A stretch of 64,000 bases of DNA from Clostridiales bacterium (GTDB lineage: Bacteria > Bacillota > Clostridia > Oscillospirales > CAG-272). The position numbers were made by a program, and so were the translations under genes. The notes beneath the pieces were generated by a model, which saw only the letters and a list, made by a program, of their open reading frames with translations, did not search any database and was not told where the DNA came from. The stretch spans positions 1,735-65,734 of the forward strand of contig JAEEYP010000048.1 of assembly GCA_016288155.1 (NCBI GenBank), in the 5' to 3' direction. Shown here piece by piece: positions 2,749-40,300 of this stretch. The stretch's first letter is position 1; each line of letters starts with the position of its first letter.

Positions 2749-3435
2749 TTATTTCCAGGTGTATTTATGCTCCAGAACGATCGGGAACAGCGGCCCGACC
2801 GATCCGGCGAGCGCGGGGGCGAGGTCTTCTCTGACCGCGGTCATGCGGACGGGAAGACCGCTCTCGCGCGAGAGCGCTTCGGCGAAGGGAAGGGAAGCGA
2901 GGACGTCCTCCGCGGTCGTCTCCTCCCCGAGGTTCGTGTTGTTGACGATCCCGGTGGCGCGGATGCCGCCCGCCGCTTCGATCTCCCGCAACACGGCGAG
3001 CGCGTCGGGAACGGTCCGTGTCAGAGGACGGAAACGGTTGACGACGAAGAGCATCTCGTACCGTCCCTCGGCGAGGATGGCGGGCGCGTAGCGGCCGAGC
3101 GCGAGCGCGCCGCGGTCGTCACCGCCGATGTCGAGCACGGCGTAGGCGTCCGTGTCGTCCGTCACGGCGTACATTTCCGTCGGCAGCGCGGGAAAGTCGA
3201 CGTTCGTGTTCGCGTAGGCGGAGGAGATGAGGCGCACCCCCGCCGCGTCGAGGCGCGCGGCGCTGTCCTTGGTGCGGAAATACGGGTTCACGATGTCGAG
3301 GTCGGCGATGTTCACCCGGTATCCGAGCGACCGGATCCACAGCGCGTAATTCACGGCGATGTTCGTTTTGCCGCTGCCGTAATGCCCGCAGAAGAGCGTC
3401 ACGCGGCGGGGCGGCGCAAGCGCGGCGTCGTTCAC
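2749..3435 (-). CDS. P-loop NTPase (SIMIBI/MinD-Mrp-CooC-like), function unknown
   Basis: 228 aa. Walker A is GHYGSGKTN, followed by DLDIVNPYFR and a DIGGDDRG Walker-B-like block. It sits between the acyl-CoA synthetase and the OFOR genes with 14- and 21-nt gaps. Confidence 0.7.
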   Translation of the reverse strand: MNDAALAPPRRVTLFCGHYGSGKTNIAVNYALWIRSLGYRVNIADLDIVNPYFRTKDSAARLDAAGVRLISSAYANTNVDFPALPTEMYAVTDDTDAYAVLDIGGDDRGALALGRYAPAILAEGRYEMLFVVNRFRPLTRTVPDALAVLREIEAAGGIRATGIVNNTNLGEETTAEDVLASLPFAEALSRESGLPVRMTAVREDLAPALAGSVGPLFPIVLEHKYTWK

Positions 3436-3449
3436 GGCGGCGCCTCCCG

Positions 3450-5747
3450 TCAGAGCTTGGAGCGGATGATCTTGCCGCTCGTGGTCTTCGGAAGCTCGTC
3501 GCGGAACTCGACGATGCGCGGATATTTATAGGGCGCCGTGTGCGCCTTGACGTAATTCTGGATCTCCTTCTTCAGCTCGTCCGTGCCGACGGTGCCGCGC
3601 GTGAGCACGACGCTCGCCTTGACGATCTGTCCCCGGATCTCGTCCGGGACGGCGGAAACGCCGCATTCGAGGACGTACGGCAGTTCCATGATGACGGATT
3701 CGATTTCGAACGGTCCGATGCGGTAGCCGGACGACTTGATGACGTCGTCGATGCGGCTGACGTACCAGTAGAAGCCGTCCTCGTCGCGCCACGCGAGGTC
3801 GCAGGTGTGATAGTATCCGTCGTGCCAAACCTCGGCGGTCTTTTCCGGATCGTTCCAGTATCCGGTGAAGAGTCCGCAGGGCGCGCCCTCCGCGACGCGG
3901 ATGCAGATCTCGCCGGTCTCGCCGTCGCCGACCTCGTTCCCGTCGCCGTCGAGCAGACGGACGTCGTAGATCGGGCAGACACGTCCCATCGAGCCGATCT
4001 TGTGCGGCGCGCCGGAGAGGTTGCCGAGGATGCACGTCGTTTCCGTTTGACCGAAGCCTTCCATGATCGGGAGCCCCGTCGCCGCCATGAACTGCCGGTA
4101 TACCTCCGGGTTGAGCGCCTCGCCGGCCGTGGAGGCGTGGCGGAGCGTGGAGTAAGAATAGCGGGAGAGATCTTCTTTTATGAGCATGCGGTACATCGTC
4201 GGCGGCGCGCAGAAGGTCGTGATGCCGTATTCCTCAAAGAGCGGCAAAATCTGCGCGGCGTCGAAACGGTCGAAGTCGTACACGAAGGTCGCGCCCTCGC
4301 ACAGCCACTGACCGTACAGCTTGCCCCACATCGCCTTCGCCCAGCCGGTGTCGGAGATCGTGAAGTGCAGTCCGTCCGTCTGGACGCAGTGCCAGTATTT
4401 CGCGGTATGGAAATGCCCGAGCGGGTACTTGTGGCTGTGCAGCGCCATCTTCGGGTATCCGGTCGTGCCGGAGGTGAAGAAGGCGAGGAGCGGATCGTCC
4501 CCGCCGGGGGCGTCCGGCGTGCGGAGATAGTGGCTCGAATACATCGTGTACTCCTCGTCGAAGGAGCGCCAGCCGTCGCGCTTGCCGTTGACGAGGATGC
4601 GGATCGGCGATATGCCGGAGGCTTCCTCCGCGAGCTCGACCTGATGCGCGCAGTCGCCGTCGGCGGTGCAGATCACCGCCTTGACCTCCGCGAGGCGGAA
4701 GCGGTACTCAAGGTCGTGCGCGAGGAGCTGGTTCGTGCCGGGGATGGCGATGGCGCCGAGCTTGTTGAGCCCGAGCATCGCCGGCCAGAACTGCCAGTGC
4801 CGCTTGAGGATCATCATGACGCGGTCGCCGCGCCCGATGCCGATGGATTTGAAGTAGTTCGCGCAGCGCGCGGACTCGTGCGCCATGTCGTAGAAGGTGA
4901 AGCGGCGGCACTCCGTCTTGTCGCCGGAGAGCCAGACCATCGCGAGCTTGTCCGGCTTCTCGGCGGAGAGCGCGTCCACGAGGTCGAAGGCGAAATTGAA
5001 GTGCTCGATATCGTGGAAACGGATCGAGAGCGGCGTGCCGTTCTCGTCTTCCTCGGTATCGATGAAGCGGCGGTACACGCGCTCGGTGGTATCCGCCGGA
5101 GCGGGGGCGACGGCGGGAGACGGCGTTGCGGCGATGGCGAATTCGGGGATCTCCGCCCCGGAGGGATTGAGTACGATGGCGTAGAAATGGCAGTCCTGCC
5201 CGTCGAGGGCGATCATGCCGTGGGGCGTCGAGGAATCGTAATAGATGGAGTCCCCTTCGTGCAGGATCTCCTTGTGTTCGCCGACCTGCACCTTCAGCGT
5301 ACCGCTGATGACGATGTCGCATTCCTGTCCTTCGTGCGTCGTCATCTCGATGTCGCGGTGCAGCGCCTCTTCCATGAAGCGCAGCCGCACGCACAGCGGT
5401 TCCGCGATGCGGTTCTTGAACGCGGCGGCGAGGTTATGGTACACCATGCCGTGCGCTTCCTTGATCTCCTGACCGCCGCCGCGGCGGGTGACCGTGTAGG
5501 AGGCGAGCGTCGGGGATTTTCCTTCGATGATATCCGTGACGTCCACGTTGAAGGCGAGCGCGCAGCGGTAGATGAAGGCGAAGGGAAGATCGGACAGCCC
5601 GTTCTCGCAGGCGGTGTACTCCTCCTCGGAGACGTCCGTCTTCTGCGCCATCTCCGCGCAGGTATATCCCTCGATCTCGCGCAGCTCGCGGATGCGCCCC
5701 GCCATTTCGGCGATCTTCACGTCCAGACCGGTGATCGGTTTTGCCAT
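3450..5747 (-). CDS. Three-domain fusion: XRE-family HTH + cupin + ACSM/MACS-type medium-chain acyl-CoA synthetase (AMP-forming)
   Basis: 765 aa.
- N-terminus IRELREIEGYTCAEMAQKTDVSEEEYTACENG is HTH_3-like.
- The block HEGQECDIVISGTLKVQVGEHKEILHEGDSIYYDSSTPHG is cupin-like.
- The C-terminal ~540 aa carry the adenylate-forming motifs FTSGTTGYPKM, GFGQTET, SGYRIGPFEIES and PKTTSGKIIR.
- RBS ggagg lies 5 nt upstream of the ATG. Confidence 0.85.
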   Translation of the reverse strand: MAKPITGLDVKIAEMAGRIRELREIEGYTCAEMAQKTDVSEEEYTACENGLSDLPFAFIYRCALAFNVDVTDIIEGKSPTLASYTVTRRGGGQEIKEAHGMVYHNLAAAFKNRIAEPLCVRLRFMEEALHRDIEMTTHEGQECDIVISGTLKVQVGEHKEILHEGDSIYYDSSTPHGMIALDGQDCHFYAIVLNPSGAEIPEFAIAATPSPAVAPAPADTTERVYRRFIDTEEDENGTPLSIRFHDIEHFNFAFDLVDALSAEKPDKLAMVWLSGDKTECRRFTFYDMAHESARCANYFKSIGIGRGDRVMMILKRHWQFWPAMLGLNKLGAIAIPGTNQLLAHDLEYRFRLAEVKAVICTADGDCAHQVELAEEASGISPIRILVNGKRDGWRSFDEEYTMYSSHYLRTPDAPGGDDPLLAFFTSGTTGYPKMALHSHKYPLGHFHTAKYWHCVQTDGLHFTISDTGWAKAMWGKLYGQWLCEGATFVYDFDRFDAAQILPLFEEYGITTFCAPPTMYRMLIKEDLSRYSYSTLRHASTAGEALNPEVYRQFMAATGLPIMEGFGQTETTCILGNLSGAPHKIGSMGRVCPIYDVRLLDGDGNEVGDGETGEICIRVAEGAPCGLFTGYWNDPEKTAEVWHDGYYHTCDLAWRDEDGFYWYVSRIDDVIKSSGYRIGPFEIESVIMELPYVLECGVSAVPDEIRGQIVKASVVLTRGTVGTDELKKEIQNYVKAHTAPYKYPRIVEFRDELPKTTSGKIIRSKL

Positions 5748-6169: not shown

Positions 6170-7660
6170 TCACTCTCTGTTCGCGTCCGCCATGCCGCGG
6201 TATTCGTCGAGGAAGTCCTCGGCGGTCTTTTCCATGACGAGCGTGACGTTCCGCCCGTCCTCGCCGAAGGAGAAGACGGCGTACATATTGCCGAAGTACC
6301 GATCGATGATCTGTACCTTGATCCCGAATTTCCGCTCTTCTTTCCATGCGGCGCTGACGGCGCAGCGGTACATAAACCCGTTCGTCGTGCGCACGCCGCC
6401 CGCCTCGTCGGAGTAGCCGAGCTGCGGGAAGCGGCAGAGCACGTTGTCTCCGATGGTGAACGGCAGCGTCTTCTCGCCCTGCGCGTTCTCCCAATAGAAC
6501 TCGCCGCTCTGTCCGTCCGGCGAGAAACGCAGGGCGAAGCGGCGGATGCCCATGCTGTTATCGCCGCAGCGGTAGTACCGGCCGTCGATGACGGAGCGGA
6601 ACGGGCTGTCCGCGCGGCCGGGGATCGAGAAGAGCTTCAGCTTGTCCGTCTCTTCGAGCAGCGCGCGGTGCGCCGCTTCGTTCTCCGGGAGCGGCTCGCC
6701 GCCCATGCGGTCCACGAGGAACTCGTTCATGCCGGCGACGAAGAGATCGATGTTGCTTTCCTGTCCCTGGTTGTCGCCGGTGCAGATGCAGATGAGATCC
6801 TTTTCCGGGATGCAGTAGGTCGACTGCCCGCCCATGCCGGAGAACCAGAAGCCGTTGTCCAGCATCCAGATCTGATAGCCGTAACCGACGGAACGGCAGG
6901 TGATGAAGCCGTTCGAGCAGTTGTCGACCTGCGGGGAGGTCGCGTCGCGCACGTACTGCTCCGGGATCAGCTGCTCGCCCTTCCAGCGTCCGCCGTTCAT
7001 GAGCAGCCGGGCGAAGGAGGCGATGTCGCGCGTCGTGCAGACCATGGCGGAATCGCCCCAGGACTCGCCGTTCGGCGTTTTGAGGATCTCGGCGTTTCGG
7101 AAGGTGCCGATCCGGTCGAAGAGCTTTTTCTTTAAATAATCGAGCAGCCGCATCCCGGTCAGCTTCTCGACGAGGACGCCGAGTGTCTGCGAGCCGGCGG
7201 AATCGTACTGGAAGATGCGCCCGCCCGGCATGCCGCGCTGACCGTTGCCGTTGAGATAGTAATGCACGCGGTCCGGATCGCCGCTCGTGAACCAGCGGCC
7301 CAGCGGCTGGACGGTCGTCTCCATCGTCAGCATGTTGCGGATCGTCTGTTTCTTGAGCGCTTCGGGGAGCTCCGTGTCGATCCGCTCCGGGAAGTACTTG
7401 ACGATGGGATCGTTTATGGAGATCTTTCCCTCCGCCTCGAGCAGACCGATGGCGATGGCGACGAAGCTCTTCGTCTGGGAATACATCCGGTGCACGTCGT
7501 CCGTGCCGAACGGCTTCCAGCGGAATTCACCGAAGATCTCCTCTCCTTTCATGAGAAGAAGATTGTGCATGACGACGCCGTTGCGCTCGAGGAACCGCAC
7601 GAAACCGAGTACGTCCTGCGAGCGGATGCCGGCTTTCTCCGGGGTGATTTTCTCAAACAT
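6170..7660 (-). CDS. Serine hydrolase, beta-lactamase/transpeptidase-like fold (class C-like, cytoplasmic)
   Basis: 496 aa. It has an SxxK motif (YSQTKSF) in the typical N-terminal position and no signal peptide. Confidence 0.7.
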   Translation of the reverse strand: MFEKITPEKAGIRSQDVLGFVRFLERNGVVMHNLLLMKGEEIFGEFRWKPFGTDDVHRMYSQTKSFVAIAIGLLEAEGKISINDPIVKYFPERIDTELPEALKKQTIRNMLTMETTVQPLGRWFTSGDPDRVHYYLNGNGQRGMPGGRIFQYDSAGSQTLGVLVEKLTGMRLLDYLKKKLFDRIGTFRNAEILKTPNGESWGDSAMVCTTRDIASFARLLMNGGRWKGEQLIPEQYVRDATSPQVDNCSNGFITCRSVGYGYQIWMLDNGFWFSGMGGQSTYCIPEKDLICICTGDNQGQESNIDLFVAGMNEFLVDRMGGEPLPENEAAHRALLEETDKLKLFSIPGRADSPFRSVIDGRYYRCGDNSMGIRRFALRFSPDGQSGEFYWENAQGEKTLPFTIGDNVLCRFPQLGYSDEAGGVRTTNGFMYRCAVSAAWKEERKFGIKVQIIDRYFGNMYAVFSFGEDGRNVTLVMEKTAEDFLDEYRGMADANRE

Positions 7661-9445: not shown

Positions 9446-11509
9446 ATGACAAGTATCGGCAAGGAATATCTGACCATGCTCCGCGAATGGGCGGAGGCGA
9501 TGCGCCCCTATCTTTTCACGCCCGCGGACCGTCCCGACCTCACCTATTACGGCGACGGTACGAACGGCTGGGGCACCCAGACGAACCAGAAGGCGCTCGC
9601 GGCGCTCGCCGCGCTCGCGACGCTGCCGGGCGGCGAGCCGAAGTGGATCCCCACGGCGCTCGCCATGCTCCGCTATTCGCTCGAATCGCACCTCGTCGGT
9701 TCCTATCATCTCTCCGACGGGGAGGACATGAAGTGGGGGCACACGTGGATCTCTCCGCTCGGCGTGGAACGGATGATGTTCGGCGTGGACCTGCTCCTCC
9801 CGTACATGACGGAGGACGACCGGGCGCTCTTACGCCGCATGCTGATCTCCGAGGCGGACTGGCACCTGACGGACTGGCCGGTCAGGGCGGGGCTCGTCGA
9901 CTGGAACTTCCCGGAGAGCAACATGTGGAACGGCGCGCTCCTCCTCCGCACCGCCTCGCTCTATCCGGACTGCCCGAACGCGGCGGCGTACGTCGACCGC
10001 GGGACGGATTTCCTCGTCAACGCGGTCTCCGTGCCGTCGACGTCGCAGGAGAAGACGGTCTACGAGGGGAAGACGGCGGCAGAGCGCTTCGTCGGCGCGA
10101 ATTTCTTCGAGAGCTATGCGACGGACCATCATCACTACATGAACGTCGGATACATGGTCATCACGCTCTCGAACGCCTCCATGCTGTATTTCCACTACCG
10201 CACGCGCGGACTGCCCGTCCCGCCGGTGCTGCTCCACAATCTCGAGCGGCTGTGGCAGCTCGTCAAGTCCTTCCTCTATGAAGACGGGCGGCTCCTCCGG
10301 ATCGGCGGCGACACGCGCATCCGCTACTGCTACTGCCAGGATTATCTTCTCCAGACGCTGAACATGGCGGCGGATCTCTGGGGCGAGGAGACGGACGGCT
10401 GGGAACGCGGCTGGATCGGGCAGCTGATGAAGGAACGGACGTACAACGGGGACGGTTCCTTCCTCTCCCGCCGCGCGGAGATCTTCGTCGAGCGCTCGCC
10501 GCTCTACTACACGCGTCTGGAGTCGGACCGCGCCTCTTGCATCGCGTTCAGCGCCGTCCACCGTCATCTCTTCTCCGATTTCGCCGAACCGGCCGGACGG
10601 CGGGAGATCCCGCCGCTTACGGTGTGGTCCGATGCATATCACGGCTCGTATCTCGTCCGGGAACCGGGGCGGTACGCCGCGTTCACCTGGCGCGGGGCGG
10701 AGGGTCCGTCGGCGCTCTGCCTGCCGCCGGAGGATTCCTCCCTCGCCGAGTGGAAGCTCAACCTGACCGGGGCGGTGACGGGCAACGGTTCGGAGGAGAA
10801 CGCGAACATGCTCTCGTTCGGCGGACGCTCCTTCATCGGCGGCTTTCTGACGTGGGGCAGCTACGTGTCGCACACGCGCGGACTGCTCGAGGAGCAGATC
10901 CGCGAGGAGGATACCGTCCGCACGCAGCTCGTGTGCGCGGCGCTGCCGGACGGGAAGACGATGATCGTGATGCAGTACGCGCGCGCCGTGAAGAACTGTC
11001 ATATCACTTCCGCGTCGCCTCTGCATCTGAATATCCCGAACGACGTCTTCAACGGGTTCTCCCGTACCTACACGGAGTCCGAGGGACGCGTCACAGTGGA
11101 CGGACGGATGACGGTCATCCCCGCCTACGGCGGACGGCTGAAGATCCTGCGCCCGCCGTACCGGCAGATCGGCATCCGCGCCTCCCAGTGGGTCTATCCG
11201 ACGCGCGGCTTTCTGCACGCGGACGAGATCTCGATGGATCCGATCGAGACGCCCGTGTTCCTCGCCGCGGGGCAAATCGCGTTCGATATCGGCGCGGCGG
11301 TGACGCTCTCGCGCGGCGGCTTTGCCGCGGGCTCGGCGATCCGCGCCGTGCGCGACGGGACGCATCCGCTTCTGCGCGGCGTGACGTATACGGCGGACGA
11401 CGGGACGGCGTACACGGTGCTCGCCAATTTCGGCGAGACGGATGCGGAAGCCGTGATCGGCGGACGCGCCGTGACGGTCCCCGCCGGGGCGGGCGAGATC
11501 TTTTGGTGA
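9446..11509 (+). CDS. Hypothetical cytoplasmic protein, tentatively alpha/alpha-toroid plus beta-sandwich (heparinase II/III-like lyase fold)
   Basis: Start trimmed to the ATG at 9446 (MTSIGKEYL..), with RBS gggag upstream. No signal peptide. The motifs NFPESNMWNG and TDHHHYMNVGY resemble polysaccharide-lyase toroid active-site regions. The assignment is by eye only. Confidence 0.4.
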   Translation: MTSIGKEYLTMLREWAEAMRPYLFTPADRPDLTYYGDGTNGWGTQTNQKALAALAALATLPGGEPKWIPTALAMLRYSLESHLVGSYHLSDGEDMKWGHTWISPLGVERMMFGVDLLLPYMTEDDRALLRRMLISEADWHLTDWPVRAGLVDWNFPESNMWNGALLLRTASLYPDCPNAAAYVDRGTDFLVNAVSVPSTSQEKTVYEGKTAAERFVGANFFESYATDHHHYMNVGYMVITLSNASMLYFHYRTRGLPVPPVLLHNLERLWQLVKSFLYEDGRLLRIGGDTRIRYCYCQDYLLQTLNMAADLWGEETDGWERGWIGQLMKERTYNGDGSFLSRRAEIFVERSPLYYTRLESDRASCIAFSAVHRHLFSDFAEPAGRREIPPLTVWSDAYHGSYLVREPGRYAAFTWRGAEGPSALCLPPEDSSLAEWKLNLTGAVTGNGSEENANMLSFGGRSFIGGFLTWGSYVSHTRGLLEEQIREEDTVRTQLVCAALPDGKTMIVMQYARAVKNCHITSASPLHLNIPNDVFNGFSRTYTESEGRVTVDGRMTVIPAYGGRLKILRPPYRQIGIRASQWVYPTRGFLHADEISMDPIETPVFLAAGQIAFDIGAAVTLSRGGFAAGSAIRAVRDGTHPLLRGVTYTADDGTAYTVLANFGETDAEAVIGGRAVTVPAGAGEIFW

Positions 11510-11589
11510 AAAGCGGACGCGCGTCCGCACGGAAATAGAAAAACTGCCGGCACCCCCTTGCGGCGCCGGTTCCGAAGGAGGCATCCCGT

Positions 11590-12501: not shown

Positions 12502-12564
12502 GGGGAGCGATTCTAAAAAAAAACGATGAATCTGCAAAAAACCGAAGAATCTGCAAATTATCTC

Positions 12565-12593
12565 TTGACACGGCTCCCCCGGCGTGCTATAAT
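12565..12593 (+). promoter_or_regulatory. Sigma-A type promoter for T-box leader 2
   Basis: TTGACA (12565..12570), a 17-nt spacer, then an extended -10 TGcTATAAT (12585..12593). Confidence 0.75.
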
Positions 12594-12613
12594 GAATCAA
12601 CAACCGAATAACA

Positions 12614-12881
12614 GGCGTTGACGAAGACGGCGGAAAAGCGGTACTCCAGAGAGTCGGCGGGCGGTGCGAGCCGACGTATTCCTTTTCAGAAGCCTATCCC
12701 TTCCGAGCCGGAAGGCTGAACCCCCGCGAGGGCAAGTAGGTCTTCCCGTGATTGCTGCGTAAAGGCATAGGGCTTATTGGAGCCTGAGAGGCATCGGCGT
12801 CCGCCGGTGCAATTTGAGTGGTACCGCGGGTTTTGTTTTCAGACCCGTCTCAAAGCGATTTGAGACGGGTTTTTATTTTTT
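12614..12881 (+). promoter_or_regulatory. T-box leader (tRNA-sensing transcription attenuator), leader 2
   Basis: - K-turn GGC-GUU-GA-C-GAAG paired with CUUC-C-GA-GCC
- AGAGAG bulge (12648..12653)
- distal loop GGGCGGUGCGA
- T-box AAUUUGAGUGGUACCGCGGGU (12811..12831)
- terminator ACCCGUCUCAAAGCGAUUUGAGACGGGU followed by a U-run (12843..12881). Confidence 0.9.
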
Positions 12882-12899
12882 GAATCGGAGGATCCTGTC

Positions 12900-15182
12900 A
12901 TGCAGAACAGCGAGCAGAACGTCGGCGTCCCGATGACGCAGCTTGAGGAGATGGCGCACCGCATCCGCGACATGCGCGAGATCGCGGGACTGACGGCGGC
13001 GCAGATGGCGCAGAAAACGGAGATCACGGAGGAGGAATACCTGCGTTACGAGGAAGGGAAGGTGGATTTCCCCTTCACGTTCCTGCACAAATGCGCGCTC
13101 GCTTTCGGCATTGAGATTACGGAGATCCTCGAGGGGCACGGCGCGCGCCTTGCCTCTTATACCGTGACCCGGAAAGGGAAGGGCGCCCGCACCGCGCACG
13201 AGGACGGCATCGAGATCGCCGACCTCGCGCCGATGTTCCGCGGCAAGCTCGCTGAGCCGTATTGGGTACGCTATACGTATTCCGACGCGCTCCAGTCCGC
13301 GCCGATCCACTGCACGAAGCATGCCGGACAGGAGTTCGACCTCGTTCTGAGCGGGCGGCTGCGCGTGCAGGTCGGCACGCACACCGAGGAGCTCGCCGAG
13401 GGAGACAGCATCTTCTACAACAGCTCGACGCCGCACGGCATGATCGCCGTCGGCGGCGAGGACTGCGTTTTCCTCGCGTTCGTCATGACGGGCGAACCCT
13501 CCGGCGAGGACGTGCTCCATCCGGAATACATCTCCGCCCCGCAGACGGAGCGGCTGACCGTCGAGAAATTCGCGCACACGAAGACGGACGCGAACGGCCT
13601 GTTGACGGAGGTGCATTTCGAGAATGCCGACCGCTTCAACTTCGCCTTCGACATCGTCGACACGCTCGGCCGCGAGAAGCCGGACCAGCTCGCGATGATC
13701 CACCTCGACGGGGAGAAGAACGAGCGCCGCTTCACCTTCGCGGACATGAAGCGCGCTTCCTCCCAGTGCGCGAATTACTTCAAGGCGCTCGGCATCCGGC
13801 GCGGCGACCGCGTCATGCTCGTGCTCAAGCGGCACTGGCAGTTCTGGCCGGCGATCCTCGGTCTGCACAAGCTCGGCGCCGTCGCCATCCCGGCGACGAA
13901 CCAGCTTCACGAGCACGATTTCGTCTACCGCTTCGACGCGGCGGGCGTCTCCGCCGTGCTCTGCACCGCGGACGGACAGACCGCCGCCGACGTGGACGCC
14001 GCCGCCGCGAAGTGCCCGTCGGTCAAGCTGAAGATCCTCGTCGGCGGACAGCGCGAGGGCTGGCGCGATTTCAACGGAGAATACAGCCTCTTCACCGGCA
14101 AGTTCGAGCGCACGGAGGACGCTCCCTGCGGGGACGACACGATGCTCATGTTCTTCACCTCCGGCACGACCGGCTATCCGAAGATGGCGATGCATTCCTA
14201 TAAGTATCCGCTCGGGCATTACCTGACGGCGCGCTACTGGCACAACATCCATCCGGGCGGGCTCCATCTGACGATCTCCGACACCGGCTGGGGCAAGGCG
14301 CTCTGGGGCAAGCTCTACGGCCAGTGGATGTGCGAGGCCGCCGTCTTCACCTACGATTTCGACCGCTTCCACGCAAACGATATCCTGCCGCTCTTCGCGC
14401 AGTATCAGATCACGACTTTCTGCGCGCCGCCGACGATGTACCGCATGCTCATAAAGGAAGACATCTCCCGCTACGATCTTTCCTCGATCCGCTATGCGAC
14501 GACGGCGGGCGAGGCGCTCAACCCGGAGGTCTTCCGGCAGTTCGAGAAGCAGACGGGGCTGAGGATCATGGAGGGCTTCGGACAGACGGAGACGACGCTG
14601 ACGATCGGCAACATGGTCGGCGCGCCCGCCAAGATCGGCTCTATGGGACGGCCGGTACCGCTGTACGACATCGACCTCGTCGACCCGGACGGGAATCCCG
14701 TGCCGGACGGCGAGACGGGCGAGATCGTCGTCCGCACGGACCGGGAGATCCCCTGCGGGCTCTTCAAGGGCTACTACGAGGCGCCGGACAAGACGGAGGA
14801 GGTCTGGCACGACGGCATGTACCACACGCGCGACCTCGCATGGCGGGATGAGGACGGCTACTTCTGGTACGTCGGCCGTGCGGACGACGTCATCAAGTCG
14901 TCCGGCTACCGCATCGGACCGTTCGAGATCGAATCCGTCATCATGGAGCTGCCGTACGTGCTCGAATGCGGCGTGTCCGCCGCGCCGGACGAGATCCGCG
15001 GGCAGGTCGTAAAGGCGAGCATCGTGCTCACGAAGGGGACCGTCGGCACGGAGGAACTGAAGAAGGAGATCCAGGACTACGTGAAGAAGCAGACCGCGCC
15101 GTACAAGTACCCGCGCATCGTCGTTTTCCGGGACGAGCTGCCGAAGACGATCAGCGGCAAGATCATGCGCAATAAACTCTGA
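12900..15182 (+). CDS. Paralogous three-domain fusion: XRE-family HTH + cupin + ACSM/MACS-type acyl-CoA synthetase
   Basis: 760 aa, collinear with the 3450..5747 product. Both carry the FTSGTTGYPKMA motif, and the stretch SGYRIGPFEIESVIMELPYVLECGVSA is identical in both. RBS ggagg lies upstream. Confidence 0.85.
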   Translation: MQNSEQNVGVPMTQLEEMAHRIRDMREIAGLTAAQMAQKTEITEEEYLRYEEGKVDFPFTFLHKCALAFGIEITEILEGHGARLASYTVTRKGKGARTAHEDGIEIADLAPMFRGKLAEPYWVRYTYSDALQSAPIHCTKHAGQEFDLVLSGRLRVQVGTHTEELAEGDSIFYNSSTPHGMIAVGGEDCVFLAFVMTGEPSGEDVLHPEYISAPQTERLTVEKFAHTKTDANGLLTEVHFENADRFNFAFDIVDTLGREKPDQLAMIHLDGEKNERRFTFADMKRASSQCANYFKALGIRRGDRVMLVLKRHWQFWPAILGLHKLGAVAIPATNQLHEHDFVYRFDAAGVSAVLCTADGQTAADVDAAAAKCPSVKLKILVGGQREGWRDFNGEYSLFTGKFERTEDAPCGDDTMLMFFTSGTTGYPKMAMHSYKYPLGHYLTARYWHNIHPGGLHLTISDTGWGKALWGKLYGQWMCEAAVFTYDFDRFHANDILPLFAQYQITTFCAPPTMYRMLIKEDISRYDLSSIRYATTAGEALNPEVFRQFEKQTGLRIMEGFGQTETTLTIGNMVGAPAKIGSMGRPVPLYDIDLVDPDGNPVPDGETGEIVVRTDREIPCGLFKGYYEAPDKTEEVWHDGMYHTRDLAWRDEDGYFWYVGRADDVIKSSGYRIGPFEIESVIMELPYVLECGVSAAPDEIRGQVVKASIVLTKGTVGTEELKKEIQDYVKKQTAPYKYPRIVVFRDELPKTISGKIMRNKL

Positions 15183-15190
15183 GAGAAGAA

Positions 15191-15236
15191 GCGGGGGCTC
15201 CGCGCGGAAAATTCCCCGGAGCCCCGCGATTTTTTC
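15191..15236 (+). terminator. Intrinsic terminator
   Basis: Hairpin GCGGGGGCUCCG...CGGAGCCCCGC followed by a U-run. Confidence 0.8.
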
Positions 15237-15247
15237 GCCGATCCCTA

Positions 15248-15276
15248 TTGACAAGCGGCGGGATATGTGCTATAAT
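15248..15276 (+). promoter_or_regulatory. Promoter of the infC-rpmI-rplT operon
   Basis: TTGACA (15248..15253), a 17-nt spacer, then TGcTATAAT. Confidence 0.75.
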
Positions 15277-15283
15277 ACACCGG

Positions 15284-15395
15284 AATCAAGAAGAACCGAC
15301 CCGTTCTCACCGTACCGCTATTGCGCGTACGGTTCATACAAACCGTTTTTTTCGTGCGGCGAAGATGGAGTCGGTTCGGCTCCGTCTATTTTTTT
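15284..15395 (+). promoter_or_regulatory. L20-type leader with intrinsic attenuator upstream of infC
   Basis: ~140-nt untranslated leader ending in the hairpin GAUGGAG-ucgguucgg-CUCCGUC followed by UAUUUUUUU (15364..15395). Position and architecture match the L20 (rplT) autoregulatory leader known in Firmicutes. Sequence-level homology was not verified. Confidence 0.55.
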
Positions 15396-15420
15396 CTCAC
15401 TGTATGGGAGGTGCTGCACC

Positions 15421-15942
15421 ATAGCAAAGGAACTGTTGATCAATGATCAGATCAAGGTCAAGGAGACCCGCATGCTCGACGAGAACGGGAATCAGCTCGG
15501 CATCATGACGCTCGCTCAGGCGCGCCAGTACGCGTATGACCACGGCGTCGATCTTGTTCTGATCGCTCCGCAGGCGACGCCGCCTGTATGCCGCGCCATG
15601 GATTACGGAAGGTATCGGTATGAGTGCGACAAGAAGGACAAGGAAGCGAAGAAAAAGCAAACCGTGACGGAGGTCAAGGAGGTCCAGCTCTCCTGCCGGA
15701 TCGACACGCATGACTTCGAGACGAAGGTGAATCATGCGCTCCGATTCCTCGGCGCGGGGAACAAGGTGCGCGTCTGCCTGAAATTCCGCGGGCGCGAGAT
15801 GGCGCACCAAAGTCTCGGCCACGAGATCCTCGAACGCTTTGCACAGGCCTGCAGCGAATGCAGCACCGTTGAGAAAAAGCCGGTGCTGGAGGGACGGCAG
15901 GTCACGATGTTCCTTGCTCCCGTCAAGCAGAATGCGAAGTAA
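15421..15942 (+). CDS. infC: Translation initiation factor IF-3
   Basis: The conserved IF-3 sequence begins IAKELLINDQIKVKETRMLDENGNQLGIM. There is no in-frame ATG/GTG/TTG near the RBS (gggaggtg at 15406..15413). The codon at 15421 is ATA, consistent with the atypical start codons characteristic of infC. Confidence 0.85.
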   Translation: MAKELLINDQIKVKETRMLDENGNQLGIMTLAQARQYAYDHGVDLVLIAPQATPPVCRAMDYGRYRYECDKKDKEAKKKQTVTEVKEVQLSCRIDTHDFETKVNHALRFLGAGNKVRVCLKFRGREMAHQSLGHEILERFAQACSECSTVEKKPVLEGRQVTMFLAPVKQNAK

Positions 15943-32079: not shown

Positions 32080-34482
32080 ATGAAGTACGATTTCAAATCC
32101 GTCGAGGGAAAATGGCAGGACCGCTGGGAGGCGGAGGGAACCTTTTGCGCGTCGGAGGATCATACGAAGCCGAAATTCTACGGGCTCGTCGAGTTCCCGT
32201 ATCCGAGCGGAGCCGGGATGCACGTCGGCCATATCAAGGCGTATTCCGGGCTCGAGGTGATCTGCCGCAAGCGCCGCATGCAGGGCTTCAACGTCCTGTT
32301 CCCGATCGGCTTCGACGCCTACGGGCTCCCGACGGAAAACTACGCGATCAAGACCGGCATCCATCCGCGCAAGGTCACGGATAAGAATATCGAGAAGTTC
32401 ACCTCGCAGCTGAAGCGCGTCGGCTTCTCCTTCGACTGGTCCCGCGTCGTCGACACGACGGAGGAAGGCTACTACAAGTGGACGCAGTGGATCTTCCGGC
32501 GCATGTTCGACGAGGGGCTCGTTTTCCGCGCCAAGACGCTCGTCAACTACTGCCCGAGCTGCAAGGTCGTCCTCTCCAACGAGGATTCGCAGGGCGGCAA
32601 GTGCGACGTCTGCCACAGCGACATCGTACAGAAGTCGAAGGACGTGTGGTACCTGCGGATCACGGAGTACGCCGACAAGCTGCTCGAAGGGCTCGATCAC
32701 GTCGACTATCTGCCGAACATCCGTCTCCAGCAGGAGAACTGGATCGGCCGCTCGGAGGGCGCTTTCGTCAACTTCGCCATATCCGGCGAGGAGGAAGCGC
32801 TCCGCATCTACACGACGCGCCCGGACACGATGTTCGGCGTGACCTTCATGGTCATCGCACCGGAGCATCCGATCCTCGACCGCTGCCGCGCCCGCATCCG
32901 CAACACGGACGCGCTCGACGCGTACCGCGCCGAATGCGCGAAGAAGACGGAGTTCGAGCGGACGCAGCTCGTCAAGGAGAAGACCGGCGTCCGCATCGAG
33001 GGGCTGACGGCGATCAACCCCGCGAACGGACGGGAGATCCCGATCTATATCTCCGACTACGTCATGATGGGCTACGGCACCGGCGCGATCATGGCGGTGC
33101 CCGCGCACGACGAACGCGACTACGAGTTCGCCAAGAAGTTCGGCATCGAGATCATCGAGGTCATCCGCGGCGGCGATATCGAGAAAGAAGCGTACACCGG
33201 CGACGGCGAGATGGTCAACTCCGGATTCCTCAACGGCATCACCACGAAGAAGGAAGCCATCGCCCGCATGCTCGAATACCTGAAGGAAAAGGGCGTCGGC
33301 GAGCGCGGCGTCCAGTACAAGATGAAGGACTGGGCGTTCAACCGCCAGCGGTACTGGGGCGAGCCGATCCCGATCATCCACTGCCCGACGTGCGGCATGG
33401 TCGGCGTTCCGTATGAAGAACTGCCGCTGAAGCTGCCGCCGGTCGAGAATTTCGCGCCCGGCGAGGGCGGCGAAAGTCCGCTCGCCAAGATCGATTCCTT
33501 CGTGAACTGCACCCGCCCGAAGTGCGGCGGTCCCGCGAAGCGCGAGACGGACACGATGCCGCAGTGGGCCGGTTCCTCGTGGTACTTCCTCCGCTATACG
33601 GATCCGCACAACAGCGAAGCGTTCGCCTCGAAGGAGGCGCTCAAATACTGGCTGCCCGTCGACTGGTACAACGGCGGCATGGAGCACGTCACGCGCCACC
33701 TGATCTACTCCCGCTTCTGGCACCGCTTCCTCTACGATATCGGCGAGGTGCCGGTCGCCGAGCCGTATGCCAAGCGCACGGCACAGGGACTGATCCTCGG
33801 ACCGGACGGCGAAAAGATGAGCAAATCGAAGGGGAACGTCGTCGACCCGAACGACGTCGTCGACGTGTACGGCGCGGACGTACTCCGCGTGTACGTCTTG
33901 TTCATGGGCGATTACGCCTCTGCCGCTCCGTGGAGCGAGAACGGCGTCAAGGGCTGCAAGCGCTTCCTTGAGCGCGTCGCCGGGCTGAGCGATATCGCCC
34001 GCGGCACAGGCGAAACGCCGGCGATCACCGCCTCCCTCCATAAGACGATCCGCAAGGTCTCCGAGGACATCGAGGAGATGAAGTTCAACACCGCCATCGC
34101 GGCGATGATGACGCTTCTCAACGAGATCTCCGACGCTGGCGCGCTGACGAAGGACGAGCTGGGGATCTTCGTGCGGCTGCTCTGCCCGTTCGCGCCGCAT
34201 CTGGCGGAGGAAATGTGGGAGGCGCTCGGTCATACGTCGCTCTGCGCGAACGCGCCGTGGCCGGAGCACGACGAGGAGAAAACGACGGACGCGACGGTCG
34301 AGATCGCCGTCCAGATCAACGGCAAGCTGCGGGGAACGGTGCTCGTCCCGAAGGACGCGCCGAAGGACGAGGTGATCGCCGCGGCGAAGGCGGACGGACG
34401 CGTCGCCGGCGCGCTCGAAGGGAAGACGATCATCAAGGAGATCTTCGTCCCCGGACGGATCGTCAATCTGGTCGTTCGCTGA
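32080..34482 (+). CDS. leuS: Leucine--tRNA ligase
   Basis: 800 aa with YPSGAGMHVGH (HIGH) and KMSKSKGN (KMSKS). Confidence 0.95.
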   Translation: MKYDFKSVEGKWQDRWEAEGTFCASEDHTKPKFYGLVEFPYPSGAGMHVGHIKAYSGLEVICRKRRMQGFNVLFPIGFDAYGLPTENYAIKTGIHPRKVTDKNIEKFTSQLKRVGFSFDWSRVVDTTEEGYYKWTQWIFRRMFDEGLVFRAKTLVNYCPSCKVVLSNEDSQGGKCDVCHSDIVQKSKDVWYLRITEYADKLLEGLDHVDYLPNIRLQQENWIGRSEGAFVNFAISGEEEALRIYTTRPDTMFGVTFMVIAPEHPILDRCRARIRNTDALDAYRAECAKKTEFERTQLVKEKTGVRIEGLTAINPANGREIPIYISDYVMMGYGTGAIMAVPAHDERDYEFAKKFGIEIIEVIRGGDIEKEAYTGDGEMVNSGFLNGITTKKEAIARMLEYLKEKGVGERGVQYKMKDWAFNRQRYWGEPIPIIHCPTCGMVGVPYEELPLKLPPVENFAPGEGGESPLAKIDSFVNCTRPKCGGPAKRETDTMPQWAGSSWYFLRYTDPHNSEAFASKEALKYWLPVDWYNGGMEHVTRHLIYSRFWHRFLYDIGEVPVAEPYAKRTAQGLILGPDGEKMSKSKGNVVDPNDVVDVYGADVLRVYVLFMGDYASAAPWSENGVKGCKRFLERVAGLSDIARGTGETPAITASLHKTIRKVSEDIEEMKFNTAIAAMMTLLNEISDAGALTKDELGIFVRLLCPFAPHLAEEMWEALGHTSLCANAPWPEHDEEKTTDATVEIAVQINGKLRGTVLVPKDAPKDEVIAAAKADGRVAGALEGKTIIKEIFVPGRIVNLVVR

Positions 34483-37374: not shown

Positions 37375-40300
37375 ATGGTAAATAAGAACACACGGAAATT
37401 CGGATGCAGACGGCTTTTGTCGCTGGTGCTCTGTCTGGTGCTGTCCTTCACGACGGCGGCGACGGCGTTCGCCGAACCGCAGGAGCCGGAATATCCGGCT
37501 CTGGAGCTCCTTGACGGTTATAAGCTGGATGCGTATGCGGCGGACAGTTATTGGCTCAAGAGCGAAAGCGATTGGAACGCTCTTGCGGCTTACGTCGCTG
37601 CGGGACATGACTGCCACGGGTGGAATTTCAAGATGTACGCGGATTTCGCCATCTCGAGACCCCTCGGTCAGCAGGTAGGCGACAGAAATCACAGAATGCG
37701 CTTTGCCGGTTCCTTCGACGGGAACGGCCATACGCTGACCGTTTCCATCAATACGAATACGGAATGGTTCAACGATAACAAAGGCTACGCCGCGCCGTTC
37801 GCCTACGTGAAAAACACGAGCATCAGCAACCTGCACGTCGCGGGCACCATTATCACGACGGGCCAGTGGGCGGCGGGACTGGTCGGTTCTACCGGGAACA
37901 ACTCAAATGACGGAGCCTGCACGATCGATCACGTTCATGTGAGCGTCGAGATCGTCAACAACTACAGCAGCCACGGCAGCACTTATGCCAATCACGGCGG
38001 CGTCGTCGGTATTCCGGAGGGCAGCGCGACGATCACGAACTCGTGGTTCGACGGCAGCTTCTCCGGAAGTGACTACAAGTATTCCGGCGGCTTCATCGGC
38101 TTGAACAACAAGACTTTCTCGTATCTGGAGAACTGCCTGTTCAATCCTTCGTCGATCGCGGCCGGCATGGACACGGAAGGCGCGTGCGAATTCGTCCACA
38201 GCATGGGTAGCGGCAGCCACGTCCTGACCAACTGCTGCTCGGTCACGACGTTCGGCGCGCCTGAGAACGCCCAGGGCACCCACGTCAAGACGGAGTACGA
38301 ACAGGGGGATGAGTATGATCCTGTGTCGGCGATTGACGGCAATACGTACTATTACATCCTCCACAGTGCCGCGTGGGCGACCCTGCAGGGATATTTTACG
38401 AACGATGCTTCCATCACTCTGGACCGCGATTACACCGCCGGTGTGGAAGATGACTGCCTGAGGGTTCCTGACGGAAAGACGCTCGAATTGAATCTGAACG
38501 GTCACACGATCGACCGCGCGCTGTACACGGAATCTGCAAAGGAAAACGGTTTCGTCATCCTGGTCGAGGGCGGCGGCAGCCTGACGATCAACGGGAGCGG
38601 CGTCGTCAAGGGCGGACATAACACCGGGAACGGCGGCGGCATCTACGTAAAAGACGGCGGTACGCTGACCCTTGCCGGCGCTGCCGTGAAGGAGAACAAG
38701 ATCGACACCGACTATGTGGGCGGCGGCGTCTACGTGGAGGACGGCGGCACGCTCCATGTGAGCGGAGACGTACAGATCAGGAACAATGCGACCGTGATCA
38801 ACGGTACCGCGAGAACGGAGAAAAACCTGTATCTTGCGGGAAGCGCCGTGATCGACATCAGCGGCGCGCTGGACTCGAGCGCCCGGATCGGCGTTTCCAC
38901 GGAGACGGCGCGCGTCTTCACGAGCGGTCTGTCCGGCAATGGCAATAAAAACAACTTCATCAGCGACAATGCGGACCGTGTCGTGTGGACGGGCGATGCG
39001 GGCGAAGCGCGGCTGGTGGATCATCTGTATACTGTGACCGTTTCGAATCCCGCGTCCGGCGGTACGGTGAAAGTCAAGTCCGGCACCCAAAGCGGCAAGG
39101 CCGCCGAAGGGGATACCGTAACGCTCACCGTCACCCCGGCGGCTAACTACGAGATCGGTACGGTGAGTTATAACGACGGCACGGTCCACGAGATCGAGCC
39201 GGTGAACAGCGTCTATTCCTTCGCCATGCCCGCCTCGAACGTGACCGTTACCGCGACTTTCATTCCCGGCGAAGTCACGCTCAGCGTGACGGCCGAACAG
39301 GGCAACGCCGCCGTCAGCCCGGACAAGGAACACTATTACGTCGGCGACGTGATCACCGTGACCGCGGCGGCTGTTGACGAATTCGATTTCGACGGATGGT
39401 ACGAGGACGATACTCAGGTCGCAGAAGACTATGAATACACCTTTACCATCACAAAGGATACCGCTCTTACGGCGAAATACACGGCGACAGGTTCCGTGCA
39501 GGTCAAGATCGACGGCGGCAGCACCTATACGATCAAAGTGGGAGAGAACAACGCAGAGACAAAGACGTCGCCCACTACCGCGAGTTACCCGTGCGGAACG
39601 AGCCTGACCATCGAAGCGCTGGACGACGGTTTCCAGTATTGGGTGAACGACAGCGGCAAGATCCTCAGCCGCAGTCAGAGTTATACCTTTACGGTCACCG
39701 GACCCGTCAGTATCAGCGCGGCGTTCAGTTCCACGGGTGGTATGGCGGCGCTCATCTTCGAGTCTGCTTACGGACAGGTCATGGCGCGCGGCGAGCTGCC
39801 CGAAGGCGGGAGCATGTCGATCCCGAGTGTTCCCGTAAAGAACGGCTATATCCCGGTGGGATGGTTCTATAACGGCGAAAATAACGCCGCCGTCGAGGTC
39901 AAGGATGCCGATTCTGTCACGGAAGCGATCAGGTACGGCCTCACGCTTGCCGACAAAACGGTGATTATCAAGCCGGTCTATAGTTTGAACGAAAATTCGT
40001 CCTACACGATCACCGTGACCGGCGGCACCGGCGGCGGAACGTATCAGCAAAACGCCGTTGTGACCGCGCGGCCGAATGCGGCGCCGGCCGACCAAAAGTT
40101 CAGCCACTGGGTCAGAGTCAGCGACGACGTGATCCTCAGCTACAACGCGGTATTCAGTTTCTACGCGGAGACGGATATCGACATCGAGGCGGTGTTTGTG
40201 GAGACCGACACTCCCGTTGACGCGGTCGGCACGGCGTTTATCGTCCGTACCTTCAAAACGGTCGTGAATGAAACCTCCAAAAAGCTGTCGTTCGTTTCCA

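Follow-up and report, generated by a model that had tools for sequence, protein, structure and literature searches.

An isoleucine-type T-box leader upstream of a cupin-fused acyl-CoA synthetase gene: a candidate tRNA-gated route for branched-chain acid salvage in Oscillospirales

A stretch of 64,000 nucleotides from a Clostridiales bacterium (assembly GCA_016288155.1, contig JAEEYP010000048.1, positions 1,735 to 65,734 of the forward strand; hereafter the window) raises the question of why a T-box riboswitch should stand ahead of a gene for an acyl-CoA synthetase, and why the same stretch should hold two such genes. An earlier note, made from the sequence alone, had described the gene at 12900-15182 on the plus strand, here called copy 2, as a monocistronic paralogue of a T-box-controlled gene on the minus strand, here called copy 1, and had proposed that an ancestral unit was duplicated and one of the copies then re-targeted to another tRNA or amino acid. 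The analysis described below leads us to suggest, with a probability of about 0.6, that an isoleucine T-box switch controls a short branched-chain acyl-CoA synthetase, the likeliest substrate of which would be 2-methylbutyrate, and that the two genes belong to a tRNA-gated salvage of isoleucine and valine.

The copy 2 unit and its specifier

Copy 2 lies in a genuine, self-contained transcription unit that runs from its own promoter to its own terminator (12565-15235, plus strand) and ends just before the infC promoter (15248-15276), as the earlier note had placed it. The parts of the unit, all on the plus strand, are:

12565-12593, plus: sigma-70-type promoter, TTGACA-17-TATAAT with an extended -10 TG (12 of 12 matches)
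12609-12855, plus: copy 2 T-box leader, Ile type (RF00230)
12615-12709, plus: Stem I of the leader, with K-turn, Specifier Loop, AG bulge and distal loop (cmscan alignment, RNAalifold)
12696-12698, plus: specifier AUC (Ile), at the canonical codon position in the cmscan alignment
12811-12830, plus: T-box sequence AAUUUGAGUGGUACCGCGGG, the 5' side of the antiterminator
12841-12881, plus: leader terminator, a 14-bp hairpin and U run (-27.4 kcal/mol, z -3.6)
12887-12892, plus: ribosome-binding site GGAGGA
12900-15182, plus: copy 2 open reading frame (ORF), 760 aa, ATG at 12900
12900-13535, plus: N-terminal module, aa 1-212, an XRE-like five-helix domain and a cupin barrel (Pfam, structure model)
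13629-15182, plus: acyl-CoA synthetase domain, aa 244-760 (3ETC, E 7e-191; AMP-binding, PF00501, 227 bits; AMP-binding_C, PF13193, 76 bits)
14292-14294, plus: codon of Gly465 (Ala470 in copy 1)
15191-15235, plus: intrinsic terminator closing the unit (-32 kcal/mol, then UUUUUU)

The promoter and T-box leader claimed in the earlier note were thus both recovered, the leader aligning with RF00230 over the full model (1-219 of 219) at 88.2 bits, with E values of 5e-19 for a 4-kb region and 8e-18 for the whole window. Stem I contains the K-turn GCG UUGA ... CGAGC, the AG bulge CAGAGAG (within 12646-12657, aligned to AGAGA of the model) and the distal loop GGGCGGUGCGA (12659-12669, aligned to GGUGnnA), the last two being the motifs that dock the tRNA elbow. 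The 5' arm of the leader terminator is the 3' arm of the antiterminator, so that the two structures are mutually exclusive, and the UGGU bulge of the T-box sequence would pair with the ACCA end of the tRNA.

For comparison, about 86 related loci were collected (referred to by L numbers below), 80 of them fetched from one-genome-per-species contigs and joined by L081-L086. All 80 are metagenome-assembled genomes from gut, faecal and rumen samples, mostly labelled Oscillospiraceae, Acutalibacteraceae, Ruminococcaceae, Christensenellaceae or simply Clostridia, and they hold 126 full-length ligase genes, for which the specifier was called as Ile in 69 and as Val in 37, with 20 uncalled. The T-box core motif was found 100-250 nt upstream of the ligase gene in 76 of the 80 loci, and a separate TTGACA...TAnAAT promoter precedes almost all of the orthologous leaders. 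For Stem I of the copy 2 type, RNAalifold predicted 17 pairs from 68 orthologues, and compensatory changes support 12 of these pairs. The AUC triplet is invariant in all 68 of these sequences, where it is placed in a 2x5 internal loop flanked on both sides by covarying helices, the lower stem GAAG/CUUC and a helix rich in compensatory changes; one pair of the latter is UA in 27 sequences, AU in 19 and CG in 17.

The Val unit and two orthologous groups of ligase

The partner of copy 2 heads a longer unit at 6086-1 on the minus strand, which includes the oxidoreductase and aminotransferase set that had been proposed at 1-2727. Its parts are:

6086-6058, minus: copy 1 promoter
6049-5808, minus: copy 1 T-box leader, Val type (RF00230, 93.6 bits)
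5962-5960, minus: specifier GUA (Val), followed by G
3450-5747, minus: copy 1 ORF, 765 aa, Val type, Ala470
2749-3435, minus: P-loop protein, 228 aa, without a Pfam or NCBIfam match
2727-2521, minus: VOR delta subunit, 68 aa, 2x[4Fe-4S]
2503-1439, minus: VOR alpha subunit (NF005507, VorB, 524.5 bits, cut-off 399)
1442-696, minus: VOR beta subunit, thiamine pyrophosphate (TPP) type (TPP_enzyme_C)
694-158, minus: VOR gamma subunit
1-146, minus: start of ilvE (branched-chain aminotransferase), truncated at the edge of the window (MLKIDFHPTT...FGKYFTDHMF)

Across 42 aligned orthologues of the copy 1 type the triplet at the specifier position is GUA or GUC, always followed by a purine (G or A), and the lower stem shows compensatory changes; the variation is synonymous only, as expected of a true specifier. 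The leaders of the two copies were said to be nearly identical in a list of motifs and to differ in the Specifier Loop and terminator, and the alignment bears this out: they share an identical 28-nt AG-bulge/distal-loop block, CAGAGAGTCGGCGGGCGGTGCGAGCCGA, and the T-box core TTGAGTGGTACCGCGGGT, and they diverge in just those two regions. A recent duplication or gene conversion of the leaders was considered and rejected, as identity between Ile and Val leaders is only mildly higher within a genome (0.64) than between genomes (0.60), with orthologues at 0.65-0.66.

The proteins tell the same story in more detail. Copy 2 contains the Pfam domains HTH_19/HTH_3, Cupin_2, AMP-binding and AMP-binding_C, and copy 1 is 62% identical to it over the whole length with the same domain order, in keeping with the description of the two as paralogues. 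When the 126 proteins were split into two clusters, one held 69 Ile-labelled genes and 1 Val-labelled gene and the other 36 Val-labelled genes and 0 Ile-labelled ones, so that specifier and protein type agree for 105 of the 106 labelled genes. Over the 126 proteins, identity averages 0.69-0.71 within a type and 0.63 across types, which indicates that the duplication is old and that the groups are orthologous sets. Judged from these comparisons, the duplication of the ligase is ancient and common to many Oscillospirales, and is not a local event in this genome. Re-targeting after duplication is supported by the contrast of AUC and GUA, by the two protein clusters and by a Gly/Ala difference described below. 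The further proposal of a small family of amino-acid-specific enzymes stood in part: the Ile and Val types are matched to their specifiers, but the family amounts to this pair, and a search of related genomes for paralogues, which the earlier note had suggested, gave no specifiers other than Ile and Val among the 126 fusion genes in 80 genomes.

By sequence, the catalytic part of copy 2 is a Macs-type AMP-forming acyl-CoA synthetase of the ANL superfamily; the closest solved structure is that of MacsMa (3ETC), aligned to copy 2 residues 244-757. Positions that differ consistently between the two types are spread very unevenly, with 7 in the 85 aa of the helical domain, 12 in the 115 aa of the cupin, 2 in the 45-aa linker and 3 in the 515 aa of the catalytic domain. 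The sole clean one in the catalytic domain is Gly465 of the Ile type, which is Ala in the Val type, in the motif DTGW-G-KALWG. Gly was found in 69 of 69 Ile-labelled genes and Ala in 35 of 37 Val-labelled genes, counts that are not phylogenetically independent. In Solobacterium (L085) a monocistronic Ala-type ligase stands behind a GUC (Val) T-box of 94.5 bits, which repeats the link between Ala and Val in another order.

The acyl pocket had been singled out in the earlier note as the place to compare the two proteins. The pocket residues of MacsMa are reported to be Trp237, Trp254, Lys256, Trp259, Cys298 and Gly351 (Meng et al. 2010). With one offset of +23 for the 3ETC chain, all of them fall on matching residues in the alignment, where they map to W447, W464, K466, W469, C508 and G561, all six of which are invariant in 126 of 126 sequences. 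The residue that switches with the specifier sits between W464 and K466, and MacsMa has Gly there, as in the Ile type. MacsMa makes 2-methylbutyryl-CoA, and its Trp259 is critical for substrate binding (PMC10455477). A simple and testable rationale for the switch would be that the extra methyl of the protein (Ala) stands opposite a substrate that is one carbon shorter.

The genes of the Val unit would supply the steps that come after the ligases. From its domains (POR, TPP_enzyme_C, POR_N/PFOR_II and a 68-aa 2x[4Fe-4S] subunit), 158-2727 on the minus strand encodes a VOR-type four-subunit 2-oxoacid:ferredoxin oxidoreductase. The peptide encoded at 146-1 (minus) matches the N-terminus of a 355-376-aa ORF that follows the gamma gene in seven related loci; the two of these homologues that were scored (L003 and L042) gave 475 and 488 bits against NF009897, the branched-chain aminotransferase model, for which the cut-off is 307. 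Since the Val unit encodes a ligase, VOR and IlvE, it would cover the whole route from branched acid to branched amino acid. The P-loop protein shows only weak similarity of the MinD/FleN/ParA type (4RZ2 at E 1e-4), and its gene holds the place between ligase and VOR in most related loci; our guess is that it is a maturation or assembly factor for the oxidoreductase.

In the related genomes the usual layout, its order from the ligases to VOR gamma taken from tblastn with the proteins of the window, is an Ile T-box and ligase, a gap of about 350 nt, a Val T-box and ligase, the P-loop protein, VOR delta, alpha, beta and gamma, and ilvE. Most of the 80 loci have the P-loop gene and the genes of all four VOR subunits behind the ligases, and an ilvE-like ORF follows gamma in 7 of 8 loci inspected. 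The window holds this cluster split in two, with the Val unit on the minus strand and, at a distance of 6.5 kb, a solitary Ile unit on the plus strand, which explains why copy 2 is monocistronic. The copy 2 type stands alone, directly before the P-loop protein and VOR, in at least 10 loci, and the copy 1 type does so in two; that either ligase may precede the same VOR fits one VOR serving both acids. In L036, L038, L045, L048, L050 and L021 the Val-type ligase follows the Ile-type ligase after 32-136 nt and lacks a separate T-box. A single upstream Ile T-box probably governs the entire cluster in L036, L045, L048 and L050, and no Ile T-box was called upstream of the tandem ligases in L021 and L038.

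More distant relatives were also inspected. The fusion family is very large (more than 8000 clusters at 90% identity and E<1e-50, nearly all named 'AMP-binding protein'), and among 1.84 billion representatives searched, the full-length fusions fell into no more than three clusters at the 50% level. The one more distant clade, P0126 (42% identity; members 42-47% identical to copy 2), provides a rare third type of ligase at L081 4493-6769, L082 3020-5296 and L083 6001-8268. The operon consists of an Ile T-box, a Gly-type ligase and the third-type ligase, with a class I/II aminotransferase next in L081 and L082, and the presumed pocket region of the third type is altered (SDTAW[E/D/A]KAYW, with C508 replaced by T). 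It was considered as a paralogue with another specifier and rejected, as it has no specifier of its own and sits second in an Ile T-box operon. In the Lachnospiraceae locus L084 (3667-9268) a Gly-type and Ala-type pair points away from a set made up of the P-loop gene, VOR and a LeuA-like gene, and L086 (7001-9283) holds a lone Ala-type ligase.

Many of the clusters have a third kind of T-box beside them, the specifier of which is CUC or CUG (Leu); the window does not contain it. It was seen in L019 (2765-7624, plus), L030 (7362-3363, minus), L040, L041, L043, L045, L047, L050, L052, L053, L055, L057 and L070. In L019 the genes behind it encode a LeuA-like protein of 470 aa, an 839-aa protein that joins a xylose-isomerase-like TIM barrel to an AMP-binding enzyme, and a member of the Amidohydro_2 family; L030 shares the first two of these genes. 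The AMP-binding fusion of this unit is thus of another kind than the cupin-fused ligases.

The surroundings of copy 2 in the window contain the following further features:

15248-15276, plus: infC promoter, the downstream boundary of the copy 2 unit
15282-15399, plus: L20-leader-like RNA ahead of infC (RF00558, 46.8 bits)
15265-15942, plus: IF3 (infC) gene

The L20-leader-like RNA falls below the RF00558 gathering score of 58.7, its position is as expected and a terminator is present. IF3 was found near the ligase gene in none of the related loci, so the adjacency of infC is not conserved. On the upstream side, GAATCTGCAAA forms an exact direct repeat right before the copy 2 -35 box (12528-12538 and 12547-12557, plus strand, 19 nt apart); it occurs three times in the window against 0.64 expected, the third copy being at 38530-38540 (plus). 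The repeat is not conserved upstream of leaders in related loci, and the regions ahead of the orthologous leaders revealed no conserved operator. A CodY box, AATTTTCWGAAAATT, was rejected as a conserved element: with at most 3 mismatches it was present in just 11% of Ile-type promoters and in 2% of shuffled sequences, and the site in the window has 4 mismatches. L001, the closest of the 80 fetched loci, has a perfect CodY-box consensus, AATTTTCAGAAAATT, upstream of its Ile-type promoter (near 7591-7605, about 94 nt upstream of Stem I), L054 and L025 were noted along with it, and near matches occur in a minority of loci. The window contains no tRNA genes, and no T-box was detectable upstream of leuS (32080-34482, plus), unlike both ligase units. 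Between the two units lie two long overlapping ORFs without a Pfam match, at 9446-11509 (plus; 687 aa; GC content at third codon positions 0.88) and 9830-11584 (minus; 584 aa); the translation of the latter is 38% identical over 573 aa to L001, at the same place upstream of the ligase.

Proposed role and its alternatives

When isoleucine is short, uncharged tRNA-Ile(GAU) would pair with the copy 2 leader at two sites, the AUC specifier and the UGGU bulge, stabilising the antiterminator and allowing read-through into the ligase gene. The copy 2 ligase would then convert 2-methylbutyrate into 2-methylbutyryl-CoA, the VOR of the Val unit would turn this into 2-oxo-3-methylvalerate by reductive carboxylation, and IlvE would yield isoleucine by transamination. 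The Val twin, with GUA as specifier and Ala in place of Gly465, would serve the same route from isobutyrate to valine. It is from the RNA elements, specifiers, orthologous groups and gene neighbourhoods set out above that we infer the substrates, the reductive direction and the use by copy 2 of the VOR and IlvE of the other operon. Induction of a T-box on starvation for its cognate amino acid and an AMP-forming ligase working in the activating direction both fit biosynthesis, and reductive carboxylation of 2-methylbutyrate to isoleucine is an accepted route in rumen organisms (PMC2812497).

The N-terminal module requires a separate reading. It had been labelled a helix-turn-helix (HTH) in the domain order of the earlier note, and Pfam gives HTH_19 at 32.8 bits (cut-off 30.2) and Cupin_2 at 46.9 bits. 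The predicted structure of residues 1-212 (pLDDT 78) gave as its best Foldseek match the HTH_3-cupin protein 1Y9Q, along with HppE (E 6.5e-14), HEPD and MPnS, over a range of E 1.6e-14 to 1e-9. His141, Glu145 and His179 (codons at 13320, 13332 and 13434) are invariant in 126 of 126 sequences; the iron ligands of HppE are His138, Glu142 and His180 (PMC7916636). In copy 2 the helical domain carries a net charge of -7, and across the 126 sequences one of -2 to -10, and the recognition-helix positions read EEEY as against QQSI in the 434 repressor. The acidic helix and charge together with the HppE-like fold make DNA binding doubtful, and the 'HTH' is probably not a DNA-binding domain.

As 19 of the 24 type-specific positions fall within aa 1-200, the module may be expected to bind a ligand that is not the same in the Ile system as in the Val system; more speculatively, each type would recognise a small molecule of its own, be it the end product or the 2-oxoacid. 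With those 19 positions in the module, 3 in the catalytic domain and the triad invariant, a possible but doubtful view is that the HppE-like metal-cupin module acts as a specificity-matched sensor or second active site that tunes the ligase by Ile/Val or the 2-oxoacid. If so, it would be a new kind of built-in allosteric domain for an adenylate-forming enzyme, and would add a check at the protein level to the check by tRNA at the T-box.

The same findings could be accommodated by other roles. Copy 2 might supply lipid primers, making 2-methylbutyryl-CoA for anteiso branched-chain fatty acids when isoleucine is scarce, like MbcS of Staphylococcus aureus; control by isoleucine starvation would be equally sensible for such a supply, the gene is monocistronic with no oxidoreductase or aminotransferase attached, and MbcS (NF047394) is the best NCBIfam model for both copies, at 422-424 bits. 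This score is, however, half of the equivalog cut-off of 850, so that the copies are not MbcS orthologues, and the Ile-type gene lies directly upstream of the Val-type ligase, VOR and ilvE in most related genomes, or directly before the P-loop protein and VOR in the ten or more loci mentioned above, a layout that points to 2-oxoacids and amino acids as products. We regard this role as unlikely, while giving it the most weight among the alternatives. A little less probable still is that the two enzymes are redundant, with the same broad substrate range, and that only their regulation differs, so that the pathway is switched on when either Ile or Val is short. The great likeness of the catalytic domains, with six identical presumed pocket residues and only 3 type-specific positions in 515, would suit this view, as would the genomes that keep one type alone and the loci in which both genes follow one Ile T-box at gaps of 32-136 nt; yet the groups have been held apart across many families with the specifier and protein matching in all but one labelled gene, the Gly/Ala switch beside the presumed pocket tracks the specifier even in Solobacterium, and the N-terminal module holds 19 of the positions that set the two types apart.

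That module is also the basis for seeing in copy 2 mainly a transcription factor, with the HTH on DNA and the cupin and ligase sensing a metabolite, in a BirA-like coupling. HTH_19, HTH_31 and HTH_3 all score above their Pfam cut-offs, the fold is matched best by 1Y9Q, a regulator of the HTH_3-cupin kind, the helical domain holds seven of the type-specific positions and a direct repeat stands right upstream of the promoter. Such a role is nevertheless very improbable, given the negative charge of the helical domain in all 126 sequences, the acidic recognition helix, a two-domain fold shared with HppE, HEPD and MPnS, which do not bind DNA, the absence of a conserved operator upstream of the orthologous leaders and the full conservation of the ligase catalytic motifs. 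Least probable of all, and only just behind, is a catabolic direction, in which IlvE and VOR would degrade valine and isoleucine and the ligase would recycle the acids: both enzymes are reversible and well known in amino-acid fermentation, but a T-box that turns genes on when the amino acid is short gives the wrong signal for degradation, and an AMP-forming ligase costs two ATP equivalents, unlike the energy conservation practised by fermenters.

Several observations weigh against isoleucine and valine salvage itself. The copy 2 leader is 4.8 bits under the Rfam gathering score of 93, which is why a default gathering scan reports only the copy 1 T-box. The base 3' of its specifier is C12699 rather than the usual purine; among the 69 Ile-labelled genes this base is A in 41 and C in 28, so a non-purine after AUC appears to be tolerated in the Ile subfamily. 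The Gly/Ala switch is a single residue, two Val-labelled genes (L005 and L039) have Gly, and, of the six pocket residues by which the switch is placed, PMC10455477 confirms only Trp259. Copy 2 has neither oxidoreductase nor aminotransferase of its own, so that it is the gene order of other genomes that ties it to the pathway. Finally, no T-box was found at the fusion genes of L084 and L086, which indicates that RNA control of the fusion family is lineage-specific.

Comparison with known systems

It is an old observation that Clostridia of the rumen and gut use branched-chain volatile fatty acids or depend on them. Which genes activate branched acids in Firmicutes, and how the route is regulated, had stayed vague, and both now become testable. 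The T-box specifier would provide an amino-acid-level label for an abundant family annotated just 'AMP-binding protein', naming a candidate 2-methylbutyrate ligase and a candidate isobutyrate ligase that differ by one residue beside the presumed acyl pocket. If the proposed role is right, the T-box repertoire would widen to a salvage route that runs a catabolic pathway backwards, with a bearing on branched-chain-acid supplementation of feed, on models of gut cross-feeding and on the engineering of acyl-CoA ligase specificity.

The leaders themselves resemble known T-box riboswitches (the ileS and valS leaders, and ilv-leu of Bacillus subtilis) in Stem I, with its K-turn, Specifier Loop, AG bulge and distal loop, in the Stem II, IIA/B and III regions, in the UGGUACCGCG sequence and in the competing antiterminator and terminator; AUC (Ile) and GUA (Val) are ordinary specifiers. 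A structural difference is the small Specifier Loop of the copy 2 type, with 2 nt opposite 5 nt and an additional helix of 3-4 bp that separates the GAA-like motif from the codon. The targets differ too, as known T-boxes control aminoacyl-tRNA synthetases, classical biosynthesis genes and transporters, whereas those of the window precede an acyl-CoA synthetase gene and a ligase-VOR-ilvE operon. The surveys of Wels (2008) and Sun (2013) mention no CoA ligase or oxidoreductase among T-box targets, and a literature search on T-boxes with ligase, oxidoreductase or branched acids found no paper describing a T-box ligase-VOR regulon; leaving T-boxes out of the search brought up nothing relevant either.

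Among enzymes, MacsMa of Methanosarcina acetivorans (3ETC) is archaeal, lacks the N-terminal helical-cupin module, is not under T-box control and has Gly at the switch position, unlike the Val type. MbcS activates both 2-methylbutyrate and isobutyrate and feeds fatty-acid synthesis, without a cupin module or T-box. HppE, HEPD, MPnS and 1Y9Q share the two-domain fold of the module, and the H-x3-E...H pattern of HppE corresponds to His141/Glu145/His179, the metal site here being predicted. Identity to the HppE-type proteins is about 21%, with TM-scores of 0.4-0.5 as the domains sit differently; these are oxygen- or peroxide-dependent phosphonate enzymes, a chemistry unlikely in the presumed strict anaerobes of the fusion family, where the module is fused to a ligase.

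As a pathway, the gene set of the window would give exactly the steps of the reductive carboxylation known from the rumen, from acid to acyl-CoA, 2-oxoacid and amino acid, with VOR at its centre. The work of Allison and co-workers on that route was reportedly biochemical and assigned neither genes nor regulation in Firmicutes. What differs from the classical scheme is that acid activation would fall here to a pair of ligases matched in specificity, with the tRNA of the respective end product gating each of them. The RNA is thus an ordinary T-box and the enzyme, as far as its sequence tells, an ordinary ANL ligase; what appears to be new is their pairing, the specificity-matched duplication and the fused HppE-like module.

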